NCBI GenBank assembly: GCA_041749335.1
Contig: JBGTBM010000009.1
Location: 179 to 64,178 of the forward strand
Direction of reading: 5' to 3'
Length of the DNA: 64,000 bases
Origin: Patescibacteria group bacterium
GTDB taxonomy: Bacteria > Patescibacteriota > JABMPQ01
The notes under the pieces are model-generated. The model did not search any database and was not told where the DNA came from. It worked only from the letters and a program-made list of their open reading frames with translations. Below are positions 496 through 46,081 of the stretch, piece by piece (the first letter of the stretch is position 1; each line of letters begins with the position of its first letter). Position numbers and translations under genes: made by a program.

Positions 496-525
496 ATTAA
501 ACGAATTTAACGGATTTCGATACTA

Positions 526-558
526 AAACACCTCGTTATTAAGCGAGGTGTTTTTTTG
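526..558 (+). terminator. Rho-independent terminator of the surface-protein gene
   Basis: Hairpin acacctcg-ttattaag-cgaggtgt followed by T7. Confidence 0.7.
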
Positions 559-573
559 TTAATGATTTAAATT

Positions 574-601
574 GTAGGGGCAACTCGCGAGTTGCCCCTA
601 C
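574..601. repeat. Perfect 28-bp GC-rich palindrome gtaggggcaactcGCgagttgcccctac
   Basis: Exact inverted repeat of 13+13 nt with a 2-nt centre, in an otherwise AT-rich intergenic region. A second palindrome, ggcaggatCTTatcctgcc, lies at 654-672. Confidence 0.8.
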
Positions 602-1429
602 GCGAATAAAATATCCCTGCCGGTTGAATAAATAAATAATATAATAAAAGTAGGGCAGGATCTTATCCTGCCATTTTAGAAGAGATTAGCAACTTAAGAG
701 AACGTTATTGTGATCTCGCTTAGCTGGAGAAGCCTGCCCGCCGAAGGCGAGTAATCCCAGTAATAAATCCACGAGATTGCTTCACTCCCCTTGGTCGTTC
801 GCAATTACATTTTCTATTCACGTCATTGCGAGCCCCGACGTTACGTCGGGACGAAGCAATTTCTTGTGAATTTATAATTACATGAAAATATATTAATCCC
901 TGAGCTTGTCAAAGAGTTAAATTTAAATAGAATATAATTTTTAATAAGACATTTGAATATATTTGACACTTATTATTATATATTATGTAATATATGTTAG
1001 TTAGGGGAGTATATTGTGTTTAATTTATTTGATATTTATCTATTCGTCCATCTATAAAGCGGGGTAGTGACATATAAAATAAGTTTATAATTTAATAACA
1101 AATAGCGTGGAATTGAGTACAAATCCGGAAAAATAATTTTTTATATAATTTAACTTATTTATTATATATAGGTTCGCATAACATACATTGTGCGACGTGT
1201 ACTTATTCTACTGATAACCTCTTTCCTCTATTATTATGGCTTTAGTTTTAGGAATATTAAACACTTTCTAGGTCATAATATACCCATAAACTAATAAATT
1301 TTATTGATAATTTGTATATATCCCCCGAATTAACAAATTTCTATGACTTAATTGACATAATTTAATTATATTGCTAAATTATGATGTTCTTTGAAAATAA
1401 TTGTTTTCAGGCTCTTCAGGAGGCGGAAA

Positions 1430-11177: not shown

Positions 11178-13142
11178 TTAATTTAATTTGAAGATAAACG
11201 TCTTGTCTGTTAACAAATCAGAGGTTAATTCAACATTGCCATTTATTTTTTTTACCTCGCCTTCACCTTCAAAGCTTGTATAGTGATAATTCTCGGGCAA
11301 AGTGGCAATTATTTTTATTCCCGGCTTAATTGTTCCAATTTGTTTTTGAGCTAATATTTTGTACACATTATTTTTTAAATAATCCATGCTCTTTTGAGGC
11401 AATTCATATTCAAAAGTAACGGTTTTTGATTCTCCCGGCTCAACATTAAGAAAAGTGCCGAAAGCTTGTTTGCCAAATTCTTCCGTGACCTCATAATCCT
11501 TGTTTAAATTTGTATAATATTTAGGATTTTTTTCATTGCCGTCAACCCGAATTATTTTACTATTCAGAGGTGCGTAAACTCTTGTCCAGCTGCGATATCT
11601 GGTCGTCAGCCAAGAAAATCCTAAAGATGTGTTGGTATAATTTAGATACAGTTTTACTCGAGGATATTCGCCGGTAAAATCAATATTATAGTGCCATGCC
11701 CTTTCCATAAATTGATCAGTCTTGCGGCTAGCCATATTTGAATCAACTACCATTAAATAATCCGTATCATCGGTTACATTTTTAATATCTCCACCCCAGC
11801 CCTTATCGGCAACATAATCTTGTATTTCATCGTTTTTAAAATACATTAAGAAATGTTTTTCCTCCATTGACTCACCGATCGTCAGCAACAAATCATCCCA
11901 TTTTTCTCTTTCAAGCTTAAATAATTTATCAATTAAAATATCAGCGATTTCACCGATAATACTTTTACGGTATTCTTCGGATATCCCGATTTCAACGAAC
12001 CTGCGCTCTACGTAATATTGCAATAAAGTAGTAAAATTTTCGCTATTAAATTCTTTAGGCTGCCCGGGAACATTAATCGGGCCGGTAATCTCCATTAATT
12101 TTTCAATAAATTCCGGTGTCAATGCGATAATCCCATTAAATTCACCTTCACCGCCCTCAGTATGATAAAACCACTCAGCTTTTTCTGCGTTAGCGGGATA
12201 ATCAGGCGTCCAAGACGAATCTCTAAAATACCAAGTTCTAATGCCGGGACTAAGCAGGGTCTGAATCTGCCACGGCATTTCAACAGTACCTTCAAATTTA
12301 TCGTCTAAATTATAAGAATCATCAGTTTTAATATCAATCAGTTCAGCGTCTTTTATCTTAATTACGCCGTAGCTGCCGATAAATCCTCCTCCCGGCCTCA
12401 ATTCATCATTATTATAAAATAACATTAAATAATTTGTGGGATCGGGATAACCGGCGATTTCCGGCAAGAATCTGGTGAGAATTTGAGCTCCGCTCAAGAC
12501 TTCTTTTAGCGTCGGCAAATATTGATTTACGAGATCTTTCGCTTCTGTTATTTGAGATAAAACTAAATTATCCGGAATTTTGTCCATTTCAATTTGAGCT
12601 AGATCAACACTGCTAATTGCCATTTGAATTGCCGGCGTTGATTGCTGTAATTTCTTGAGTATTTGCTCTTTTTCCTTGGTATCCAAATCATTAAATGAAG
12701 TTTTTCCGGTAATAATCGGGCTAATAGCCTCCGTCAAAGCGCCTGAAACCGAAATTAAAGAATCATCCAATAAAATAGCTGCATTCAGCAAGCTTTCAGC
12801 GGCTTTATACTGTCTGCCCGCATAAGGCAGATATTTTATTAGAAATAATTTTTTTAAATTATCTCTGGCCTGTTCAAAATCGTTTTGCGATTGCTGCAAA
12901 GCTTCATTGGCAGCGGAGAAATCTTGTTTTTTAATTTCTTCTTGAGCTATTTCTAAATTACTTTTTCCGGAAAGAGCTCCCTGATAGGCGTTGACCGCCG
13001 GCTTATATTGGATTGCGGCCATTAAAATCAACACCGCCAAAATTACTCCCGTTGCAATTAAAACCTTTTTTGCTCTAGATAATTTTTTTCTTTTATTTCC
13101 AACTTTGGTTTCAGTGTTAGCAATAACCTTTTGGTTTTCCAT
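11178..13142 (-). CDS. Large TM-anchored extracytoplasmic protein, DUF4012-like (cell-envelope associated)
   Basis: N-terminal TM helix, then a coiled-coil or alpha-helical region, then the conserved block LRPGGGFIGSYG that I recall from the DUF4012 family. Family assignment is from memory and not verified. Confidence 0.45.
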   Translation of the reverse strand: MENQKVIANTETKVGNKRKKLSRAKKVLIATGVILAVLILMAAIQYKPAVNAYQGALSGKSNLEIAQEEIKKQDFSAANEALQQSQNDFEQARDNLKKLFLIKYLPYAGRQYKAAESLLNAAILLDDSLISVSGALTEAISPIITGKTSFNDLDTKEKEQILKKLQQSTPAIQMAISSVDLAQIEMDKIPDNLVLSQITEAKDLVNQYLPTLKEVLSGAQILTRFLPEIAGYPDPTNYLMLFYNNDELRPGGGFIGSYGVIKIKDAELIDIKTDDSYNLDDKFEGTVEMPWQIQTLLSPGIRTWYFRDSSWTPDYPANAEKAEWFYHTEGGEGEFNGIIALTPEFIEKLMEITGPINVPGQPKEFNSENFTTLLQYYVERRFVEIGISEEYRKSIIGEIADILIDKLFKLEREKWDDLLLTIGESMEEKHFLMYFKNDEIQDYVADKGWGGDIKNVTDDTDYLMVVDSNMASRKTDQFMERAWHYNIDFTGEYPRVKLYLNYTNTSLGFSWLTTRYRSWTRVYAPLNSKIIRVDGNEKNPKYYTNLNKDYEVTEEFGKQAFGTFLNVEPGESKTVTFEYELPQKSMDYLKNNVYKILAQKQIGTIKPGIKIIATLPENYHYTSFEGEGEVKKINGNVELTSDLLTDKTFIFKLN

Positions 13143-44938: not shown

Positions 44939-46081
44939 TTATGGTTGAAATTTTGAAAAGTAATTATAAATTTTACTTTCCGACCAGGCTTCATTATACA
45001 CAACAATTTCATCAATTAAACCCTGGTAATACCTTAAGGTATTACCATCAGTTCCAATTTTGATTATTCCCCCGGGTACAAAAGAAGCTATAGTCTTGCT
45101 GTTTTCCAACATTCCATTAATAATAATGCGTAGATTAGATCCATCGAAAGTAAAGGCCAGATGGGTCCAATCATTATTAATCACATCGGAAGTTGAAAGC
45201 AACCCTGATTGCATTGTAGCAACCCATTTAATAGAAACGCCATCATTCCACATCATTAATCCAGGCAAGTCATCATTCTTCCAAAAAACATATTTCTTAT
45301 CATTAACAGTAGATGGCTTAACCCATGCCATTATAGTATAACCACTGCTGATCGAATCCAAGCTCGCCGAATCCGCCACCTCAATATAACCATCAACTCC
45401 GTTAAATTGAGCCGAACAGCTATCTTGATCTTCACCCGGAACAAAATCCCCGGCATTGCAAGCCAAACTCGCTCCGCCGTATGCCACGCCATTATTGCCA
45501 TTTCCGGAAAGATCGGCCACGTACGTAGGCCAGGTGGTCCAGGCATCGCCGAACTGAAACAGCAGCTTTAGGCTGCCGCAATCCTCGTCAATCTGCCCGT
45601 CGCAGTTATTATCCAAGCCGTCACACACCTCATGACCGCCCATTGAAACACTGCACTGGTATTCACAGCCATCGGCCGGATCATCGTTTTGATCCCACCA
45701 AGTATGCGAAGTTCCTGATACCAAACATTCTGCGACCTGACATTGCCCCAAGATACATTCCGCAGTTGCATTCGGCAGATTGCAGACATTGCCGCAATAA
45801 CCGCAGTTATTGGGATTATTCTGCAAATCAAAGACCTCATCAATCTGGCCGTTGCAGTTATTGTCCGCCCCATCGCAGATTTCCACACCGCCGTTGGTCG
45901 GTACGCACGCGTCATTGTTATTATTGACGTTGGTATCCGGCTGAACTTCTGCGTCCGTCATCCCCGAATCATTATTATGATTCGGCGGCAAAAGTCCGGT
46001 AGCATCAAAAACACATCCCGACAGCGTAATCGCCATTGCAAGCAGATATACGAGATTCAATTCAAATCTTTTCAAAACCAT
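44939..46081 (-). CDS. Secreted lipoprotein with MopE-like Cys-rich metal-binding repeats and a C-terminal LamG/concanavalin-like domain
   Basis: Lipobox LSGC. Repeats CDGADNNCNGQIDE and CDGLDNNCDGQIDEDC. LamG-like C-terminus. GC content is visibly higher than the surrounding DNA, producing many spurious overlapping ORFs in the track. Confidence 0.6.
   Translation of the reverse strand: MVLKRFELNLVYLLAMAITLSGCVFDATGLLPPNHNNDSGMTDAEVQPDTNVNNNNDACVPTNGGVEICDGADNNCNGQIDEVFDLQNNPNNCGYCGNVCNLPNATAECILGQCQVAECLVSGTSHTWWDQNDDPADGCEYQCSVSMGGHEVCDGLDNNCDGQIDEDCGSLKLLFQFGDAWTTWPTYVADLSGNGNNGVAYGGASLACNAGDFVPGEDQDSCSAQFNGVDGYIEVADSASLDSISSGYTIMAWVKPSTVNDKKYVFWKNDDLPGLMMWNDGVSIKWVATMQSGLLSTSDVINNDWTHLAFTFDGSNLRIIINGMLENSKTIASFVPGGIIKIGTDGNTLRYYQGLIDEIVVYNEAWSESKIYNYFSKFQP

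Follow-up and report, generated by a model that had tools for sequence, protein, structure and literature searches.

The hairpins of repetitive extragenic palindromic (REP) sequences, which are selfish DNA elements of many bacterial phyla, are bound, as single-stranded DNA (ssDNA), by an HUH Y1 enzyme. A GTAG "guide" at the hairpin foot directs cleavage and rejoining, and REPs are believed to have spread in this way as non-autonomous elements. For REPs of the CGTC type, we know of no mobilizing enzyme. GTAG-tagged and CGTC-tagged REP superfamilies have been described in more than 80 species of 8 phyla, mostly after open reading frames (ORFs), where the neighbouring genes are unidirectional or convergent (Di Nocera et al., 2013; PMC3733652). 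By that account, CGTC REPs may carry a TGTC tag, start their stem with A-T pairs, end in a tail of about CCA, have no dedicated transposase and pair predominantly as dimers with tags outside (HH). Among the tyrosine transposases associated with REPs (RAYTs, TnpA_REP), subclass 2.4 is characterized by the motifs NH[IFV]H, WQ and YIxNNP, and its REPs are either "canonical long", whose stem starts from three G-C pairs, or "double foot" (5' GT[AG]G ... C[TC]AC 3'); REPs also lie in frame within subclass 2.4 tnpA_REP genes (Quentin et al., 2018; PMC6006769). Here we describe a GC-rich, hairpin-rich island behind a terminator in a 64-kb stretch of Patescibacteria DNA (contig JBGTBM010000009.1; hereafter the window, GC 0.319). 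We consider it likely that this island is a mosaic, similar to the bacterial interspersed mosaic elements (BIMEs), of GTAG-type and CGTC-like REPs within a lineage-specific segment of ~390 nt.

The island occupies part of a 934-bp intergenic region (496-1429) between two co-directional genes, the upstream ORF ending at 495. It is composed of two GTAG REPs (elements A and B) and of two, possibly three, units resembling CGTC/TGTC-tagged REPs, of which C1 and C2 form an inverted dimer (Table 1). An earlier note, made from the letters of this DNA, had described a GC-rich structured island at 560-900 and had offered a REP-like cluster, a structured non-coding RNA (ncRNA) or a protein-binding operator as candidates. 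Its view of the composition holds for 650-850, where GC is ~50% (0.48-0.51, against 0.17-0.27 for 850-1400), but 602-649 is AT-rich, and the GC-rich part is really 574-601 plus 650-863. AT-rich DNA (602-649 and 876-953) separates and flanks the GC-rich modules. As the note had said, the island encodes no ORF (none of ≥40 aa in 560-840). The hairpins that it listed are real, including the perfect 28-bp palindrome at 574-601, the second palindrome at 654-672 and a hairpin near 833-850 (CCCGACG-TTA-CGTCGGG at 834-850), but it missed that GTAG at 650-653 belongs to the second hairpin, and it overlooked the inverted pair 773-809/821-863. What it had called a GNRA-capped stem, gccGAAGgc, is a 3-bp stem with a GAA triloop at 740-748; GAAG is not GNRA. 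Misassembly is unlikely, since this DNA, island included, recurs without a difference over 6114 nt (100% identity) in an independent Logan assembly (L001). A search for comparative data with the flanking proteins of the window returned only this identical contig.

Table 1. Coordinates of the island, its modules and the adjoining terminator (window positions)
Feature	Position	Strand	Description
Intrinsic terminator of the upstream gene (ORF ending 495)	525-560	+	hairpin 525-554, 13-pair stem, T-run to 560; context, outside the repeat cluster
Weak imperfect direct repeat, 18 nt	556-573 and 905-922	+	15/18 identical
Lineage-specific segment, about 390 nt	562-953		holds the whole island; absent from L362; boundaries +/- about 15 nt
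"Double-foot" GTAG REP (putative), element A	574-601	both strands read alike	GTAG, three G-C pairs, variable palindromic core CAACTCGCGAGTTG, CCC, CTAC (598-601)
Canonical GTAG REP (putative), element B	650-672	+	unpaired GTAG 650-653; 8-bp stem 654-661 with 665-672; loop CTT 662-664
Possible third, decayed CGTC-like unit	706-760	+	GTTATTGTGA ... GCCGAAGGCGAG-TAATCCC; contains GCC-GAA-GGC hairpin 740-748; low confidence
C1-C2 dimer	763-875		tags inward across 810-820 (11 nt); an imperfect inverted repeat, 763-776 with 862-875, lengthens the dimer
CGTC/TGTC-tagged-like REP unit C1	773-809	-	TGTA-ATTGC-GA-[ACGACCAAGGGGAGT]-GAA-GCAAT-CTC (15-nt insert); found by relaxed unit search
CGTC-tagged-like REP unit C2	821-863	+	CGTC(821-824)-ATTGC-GAG-[CCCCGACG TTA CGTCGGG A](833-851)-CGAA-GCAAT(856-860)-TTC

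Element A (GTAGGGGCAACTCGCGAGTTGCCCCTAC) begins 14 nt past the terminator T-run. From its GTAG at 574-577, it rises through a GGG/CCC bottom into a stem of up to 10 pairs. The sequence occurred 0 times in 100 shuffles and is the sole GC-rich perfect palindrome with arms ≥12 in the window. Element B is the hairpin GGCAGGAT-CTT-ATCCTGCC on its unpaired GTAG; the stem bottom is GGC/GCC (G-C, G-C, C-G), the fold reaches -11.8 kcal/mol, and on the minus strand the element also scores as terminator-like. Both have a GT[AG]G foot, three consecutive G-C pairs at the bottom of a 6-13-bp GC-rich stem, a short loop and an extragenic position downstream of an ORF, and they belong to a sequence family that is linked to RAYT genes elsewhere (PMC6006769 and PMC3733652 for the features compared). 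Because these features match the description in PMC6006769, A would be a double-foot REP and B a canonical long REP, both of the subclass 2.4 type.

Palindromes like element A are widely dispersed. The pattern GTAGGGGCA-N6-24-TGCCCCTAC matched at least 120 stretches in viral contigs, a 28-nt class being the commonest (52/132 among the matches listed). The narrower GTAGGGGCAAC-N2-8-GTTGCCCCTAC, for which we calculated a chance expectation of about 0.24 in 596 Gb, was found in GTDB species genomes of more than 15 phyla, with at least 119 stretches matched. Hosts include Chloroflexota, Bacteroidota, Ignavibacteria, Fibrobacterota, Planctomycetota, Acidobacteriota, four proteobacterial classes and Campylobacterota, as well as Cyanobacteria, Armatimonadota, Zixibacteria, Latescibacterota, Poribacteria, Omnitrophica, Abditibacteriota, Firmicutes and an Uhrbacteria metagenome-assembled genome (MAG) of the candidate phyla radiation (CPR). 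The exact 28-mer of the window itself recurs, between different flanks, in a Planctomycetales MAG (L361). In published papers, the raw sequences matched nothing but unrelated primers. Some genomes hold several copies, with seven identical ones in 14.8 kb of L196 and eight in one Fibrobacteres MAG. By crude ORF calling, convergent genes flank 31 copies and divergent genes only 6.

The variable core of the 28-nt class covaries. At inner pairs 10-19, 11-18 and 12-17, 40 cells were doubly changed compared with 12.5 +/- 2.9 in shuffles, a level reached in 0 of 500 shuffles, and 96.7% of cells were paired. In the alignment (L123-L242), none of the 84 cells of the three free stem pairs was G-T, and in 10 of the 29 distinct cores the symmetry continues across the centre, a place where the loop of a hairpin needs no pairing. 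Because of these two properties, the data suggest that the 28-nt class owes its symmetry to processes that make or read it as DNA, or to deletion between the members of an inverted REP dimer, rather than to selection for an RNA hairpin.

Several features of individual copies were also seen. Many genomic copies have unique 8-20-nt inverted repeats directly outside GTAG...CTAC (for example L256 7603-7632, L285 5428-5456, L353, L357 and L324), such that the conserved part is the middle of a longer, locus-specific hairpin. Tandem half-unit arrays (TTGTGGTTGCCCCTAC repeated; GTAGGGGCAACCACAAAGG three times) stand beside some palindromes (L347, L268 5294-5323, L126 13511-13548 and L275 2716-2743) and hint at slippage or repeated copying at these sites. 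In three related viral contigs (L130 1176-1203, L135 1634-1661 and L146 323-350), the palindrome follows, 0-4 nt past the stop codon, a putative major capsid protein gene, whose ORF belongs to a cluster shared among phage contigs; this position fits a role as terminator or as protector of the mRNA 3' end. When the genes around the palindromes were compared for conserved neighbours, only related phage modules clustered and no enzyme partner emerged.

The GTAG family is connected with RAYT genes. Two of the 91 ORFs within 300 nt of its palindromes matched Y1_Tnp (Pfam); both, in L321 and L265, had REP-associated tyrosine transposase as their best NCBIfam match (E = 8e-18 and 4.5e-15, with scores below the equivalog cut-off). 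In both RAYT-like genes, GTAGGGGC...GCCCCTAC palindromes lie in frame directly after the HUH motif (L321 705-778 and L265 2918-2946), and tblastn added a third in-frame case (L309 1235-1262) and a RAYT-like gene in a fourth locus. Around the palindrome, the L321 protein reads HVHGIIEITKSVANA-RVGATHALPLQ-HGMDN-RRGGACPAPT-LGTIVGSYK, and its motifs are the NH[IFV]H, WQ and YIxNNP of subclass 2.4. The palindrome-encoded peptide VGAxxxxP was present in 68 of the 120 best homologues, and the loop that holds it varies greatly in length; peptides encoded by the CGTC-like family were present in 0 of these 120. In the same homologues, the loop spans 27 to 133 aa (bounds set by a regular expression) and often contains tandem half-units, such as THVGATHVGATHVGATH... 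in P0140; we found no description of such tandem expansions in the parts of PMC6006769 consulted.

The CGTC-like units of the island belong to a second dispersed family, with the unit pattern (C/T)GTCATTGC...GCAATC. At least 120 stretches in viral contigs matched GTCATTGCGAG-N8-36-CGAAGCAAT. At least 159 units with exact flanks carry varied, self-complementary inserts between the fixed flanks. Inserts of 15-20 nt form stems averaging 5.0 pairs, and 35% of all inserts reach four pairs compared with 12% of shuffles. In the 159 units listed, GTC is preceded by T (102 units), C (50) or another base (7), and the base after the unit is C in 156. The tails are CTC in 73 units, CCC in 31 and CCA in 31; that of C2 is TTC. 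The tag is CGTC in C2 and a degenerate TGTA in C1; the CGTC class also admits TGTC or CCTC. Dimers have their tags outside in 61 cases, in line with the HH predominance described in PMC3733652, with 18 tandem pairs and 10 pairs with tags inside. In the window, C1 and C2 face each other with tags inside and can be folded as a 113-nt four-way junction (-40.5 kcal/mol); seven other cases of this arrangement, with 10-14-nt gaps, were found among the 10 tags-inside pairs elsewhere. There was no clear orientation bias relative to genes (15 sense and 24 antisense). The assignment of 706-760 as a third unit is low in confidence: it was made by eye, from likeness to the insert variant GTCATTGCGAG...GAGCCGAAGGCGA-CGAAGCAATCCC, and BLAST of this region against the fetched loci gave only a weak signal, at 732-751.

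In place of one 8-9-bp stem with a 4-5-nt loop, the units have an A-T stem start (ATTGC/GCAAT) of 5 bp, then a GAG/CGAA internal loop and a second, variable hairpin. As judged from the tag, the A-T stem start, the tail and the dimer pattern, the units would be of CGTC type; because their stem is two-tier, we file C1 and C2 as CGTC-like and not under CGTC-1 to CGTC-4. A bolder reading is that (C/T)GTC-ATTGC-GAG-[variable hairpin]-CGAA-GCAAT-C is an undescribed hairpin element of bacteria and phages, with a conserved two-tier architecture and no known mobilizing enzyme, and that tags-inside dimers such as 763-875 are functional ssDNA or RNA four-way-junction modules, for example substrates of an unrecognized HUH or other nuclease, and not junk. 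We think this rather doubtful. If true, the island would record that this element passed into a CPR genome along with a subclass 2.4 REP.

The segment that holds the island is lineage-specific. IscS homologues place the organism in Patescibacteria/CPR, and its closest relative with a long contig is L362, whose IscS is 76% identical. L362 retains the gene order ValRS-IscS-IscU-pentapeptide gene-next gene. In the alignment, window 562-953 is wholly absent from L362, where the terminator T-run directly joins the block conserved with window 954-1015; the local alignment of L362 with the window starts from about 937, and its terminator at the homologous place differs from that of the window. Because the island is lineage-specific, differs in GC composition and belongs to repeat families, we infer that 562-953 was gained by insertion, which may have been a transposition or the arrival of a foreign DNA piece. 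The 18-nt direct repeat at 556-573 and 905-922 may be a duplicated target that marks the boundaries of the insertion, or chance; its score was reached by 29 of 2000 shuffles (p about 0.015), which is marginal. We rejected a miniature inverted-repeat transposable element: by eye, the whole segment 574-904 has no terminal inverted repeats, and only the marginal direct repeat turned up. In L362, the half-site GCCCCTAC (on the other strand, GTAGGGGC) is part of the terminator (12740-12775, GGCCCCTACTTCTGGGGCTTTTTT); this may be chance or what is left of an earlier REP at that site.

Classically, a REP is present in many copies per genome. Several results weigh against the interpretation of the island as an inserted REP mosaic, and the first concerns this trait: a scan for canonical REPs found only elements A and B in the 64 kb, and none in 21 kb of L362 or L364. 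The window has no copy of the palindrome, the second hairpin or the CGTC-like head elsewhere beyond chance. It also has no RAYT, as judged by tblastn with two RAYT-like proteins and by ten small ORFs, which lack Y1_Tnp. The exact 28-mer occurs 0 times in JGI metagenome contigs, with no sign of recent multiplication. The insertion is polarized from a single relative, L362, and a deletion in L362 is the alternative. Lastly, published CGTC families have an unbroken stem of 8-9 bp with a loop of 4-5 nt, which the CGTC-like family lacks. Since only two canonical REPs and no RAYT are present in 64 kb, the copies in this genome are probably inert relics.

Three other explanations of the island must be weighed. 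The first of these is a minus-strand structured ncRNA gene of ~230 nt, with a promoter at ~912-885, an end at the 672-654 hairpin and its U-run, and the 113-nt junction as its core. Such a gene would account for the promoter-like TTGACA-16-TATTTT at 912-885, the terminator-like site at 672-654 on the minus strand and the energy of the C1-C2 fold given above; moreover, the segment folds better than shuffles (z = -4.6 on the plus strand and -7.4 on the minus strand). However, low folding energy is expected for any cluster of palindromes, and the 8 promoter-like sites are not above the 6.0 +/- 2.7 of shuffles. The whole segment is absent from L362, and every hairpin is a member of a dispersed repeat family that occurs in both orientations. 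With Rfam, the whole window had 0 matches at gathering, 400-1500 had nothing better than chance-level matches at E≤10, and 11 loci with canonical copies had 0 matches. ARAGORN found no tRNA or tmRNA, and tmRNA, signal recognition particle RNA, 6S RNA and RNase P were dropped, as there was no model match and the segment is missing in the relative. We consider an ncRNA gene improbable. An operator, another candidate of the earlier note, is very improbable; the 28-bp palindrome would then be the site of a dimeric regulator of a neighbouring gene. A palindrome that is perfect through its centre, in a family where G-T pairs are absent, does fit recognition of double-stranded DNA, but this one lies 20 nt past a terminator, and the next gene starts about 830 nt downstream; the conserved promoter-like block of that gene stands 360 nt further on and is kept in the relative that lacks the palindrome. 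In addition, members of the family turn up in more than 15 phyla in settings unrelated to one another, most of them at gene 3' ends between convergent genes, and the variable core covaries and is not conserved.

The remaining explanation accepts the hairpins as REPs and makes them passengers: a foreign, REP-rich and GC-richer fragment of a host, neighbour or phage would have been captured by illegitimate recombination, and the REPs would never have transposed in this genome. The GC of ~50% in a 32% GC genome speaks for it, as do the presence of both families in viral contigs, the lack of a RAYT in the window and of any other REP in the 64 kb, and the adjacency of two unrelated REP families that seldom co-occur (4-5 CGTC-like heads per Mb of GTAG-family loci). 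On the other hand, no donor was found: blastn of the island against plasmids and cultured phages gave no match, and the adjacency of A and B had 0 matches in JGI metagenome contigs. The AT-rich stretches 602-649 and 876-953 look like the spacing between separate small insertions into local DNA, and clusters of mixed REP families are known to form in situ (PMC3733652). We regard a captured fragment as unlikely. The tags, the dispersal of both families in many phyla and the match to published REP types (PMC3733652; PMC6006769) favour the REP-like cluster, the one candidate of the earlier note that was upheld.

If the island is a REP mosaic, its segment would have arrived by transposition or as a piece of foreign DNA, and at most its hairpins would now add to those behind the upstream terminator, where they could aid termination or protect the mRNA 3' end. 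This interpretation removes a false lead, as the most structured, GC-rich stretch of the window would be a REP-type cluster and not a new RNA gene. It would also place subclass 2.4-type and CGTC-like REPs inside a reduced, AT-rich Patescibacteria genome, and the comparison of filled and empty sites would mark a place where foreign or mobile DNA was gained by a lineage whose genomes are considered very streamlined. The near-identical REP sequences across more than 15 phyla and viral contigs bear on how REPs spread; they leave the classification of the island unchanged.

Conserved elements were also seen in the DNA between the island and the next gene, which encodes a pentapeptide-repeat protein (1430-2113). 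A block at 961-1015, TTGACA...TATGTAATAT...TAGGGGAGTA, is conserved with L362 about 430 nt upstream of this gene and suggests that 1000-1430 holds either the long leader of a conserved promoter or a small RNA. The window, L362 and L363 share an almost invariant GGTTCGCATAACATACATTGTGCGACGT (window 1171-1198), with 22 consecutive columns (1175-1196) identical in all three, amid poorly conserved intergenic DNA. This sequence contains the inverted repeat TCGCA-N12-TGCGA, is unique in the window and may serve the pentapeptide-repeat gene downstream as an operator or leader element. The 3' half of that gene has 44-54% GC in a 32% GC genome. A word-index protein search with its product returned only itself and one weak match, and syntenic pentapeptide genes are present in L362 and L363; the gene is fast-evolving. 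Far from the island, a perfect 24-bp palindrome, TGGTAATACCTTAAGGTATTACCA, lies at 45024-45047 inside the minus-strand ORF 44939-46081.

Like the BIMEs of E. coli and the REPINs (REP doublets forming hairpins) of Pseudomonas fluorescens, the island is a cluster of inverted REPs in intergenic DNA after a gene, can form larger hairpins and differs in presence or absence between related genomes. Unlike them, it mixes two unrelated families in a single cluster, whereas BIMEs and REPINs are built from one species-specific REP family with regular spacing and hundreds of copies. Short GC-rich hairpins with presence/absence polymorphism in AT-rich intergenic DNA are also known as the GC clusters of yeast mitochondria and the double-hairpin elements of Allomyces mtDNA. 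Those have unrelated sequences, reside in eukaryotic organelles and are not known to carry a GTAG or CGTC tag.

The closer comparison is with the REPs described for bacteria. With the CGTC REPs of PMC3733652 (for example Neisseria dRS3 and Rickettsia RPE-4/RPE-6), the CGTC-like family shares the CGTC/TGTC tag, the A-T stem start (ATTGC/GCAAT) and the absence of a transposase nearby; its short tail (CCA, CTC or CCC) and the predominance of tags-outside dimers would be further likenesses. It differs in its two-tier stem, with a 5-bp outer part, a GAG/CGAA internal loop and a variable, covarying inner hairpin in place of one 8-9-bp stem, and the dimer in the window is of the rare tags-inside type. 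Elements A and B most resemble the GTAG REPs of TnpA_REP/RAYT subclass 2.4 (Bertels group 4), sharing their foot, G-C pairs, short loops and location (PMC6006769; PMC3733652); the CTAC at the 3' end of 574-601 and the in-frame occurrence of the family inside RAYT-like genes extend the likeness to the double-foot form. They are unlike subclass 2.4 REPs in that the window contains no RAYT and, in its 64 kb, only these two copies. Their host, a 32% GC member of Patescibacteria/CPR, belongs to a phylum not represented in the published REP surveys, as far as these were consulted. Finally, while published REPs have been called species-specific, the GTAG family keeps 22 specified bases across more than 15 phyla.

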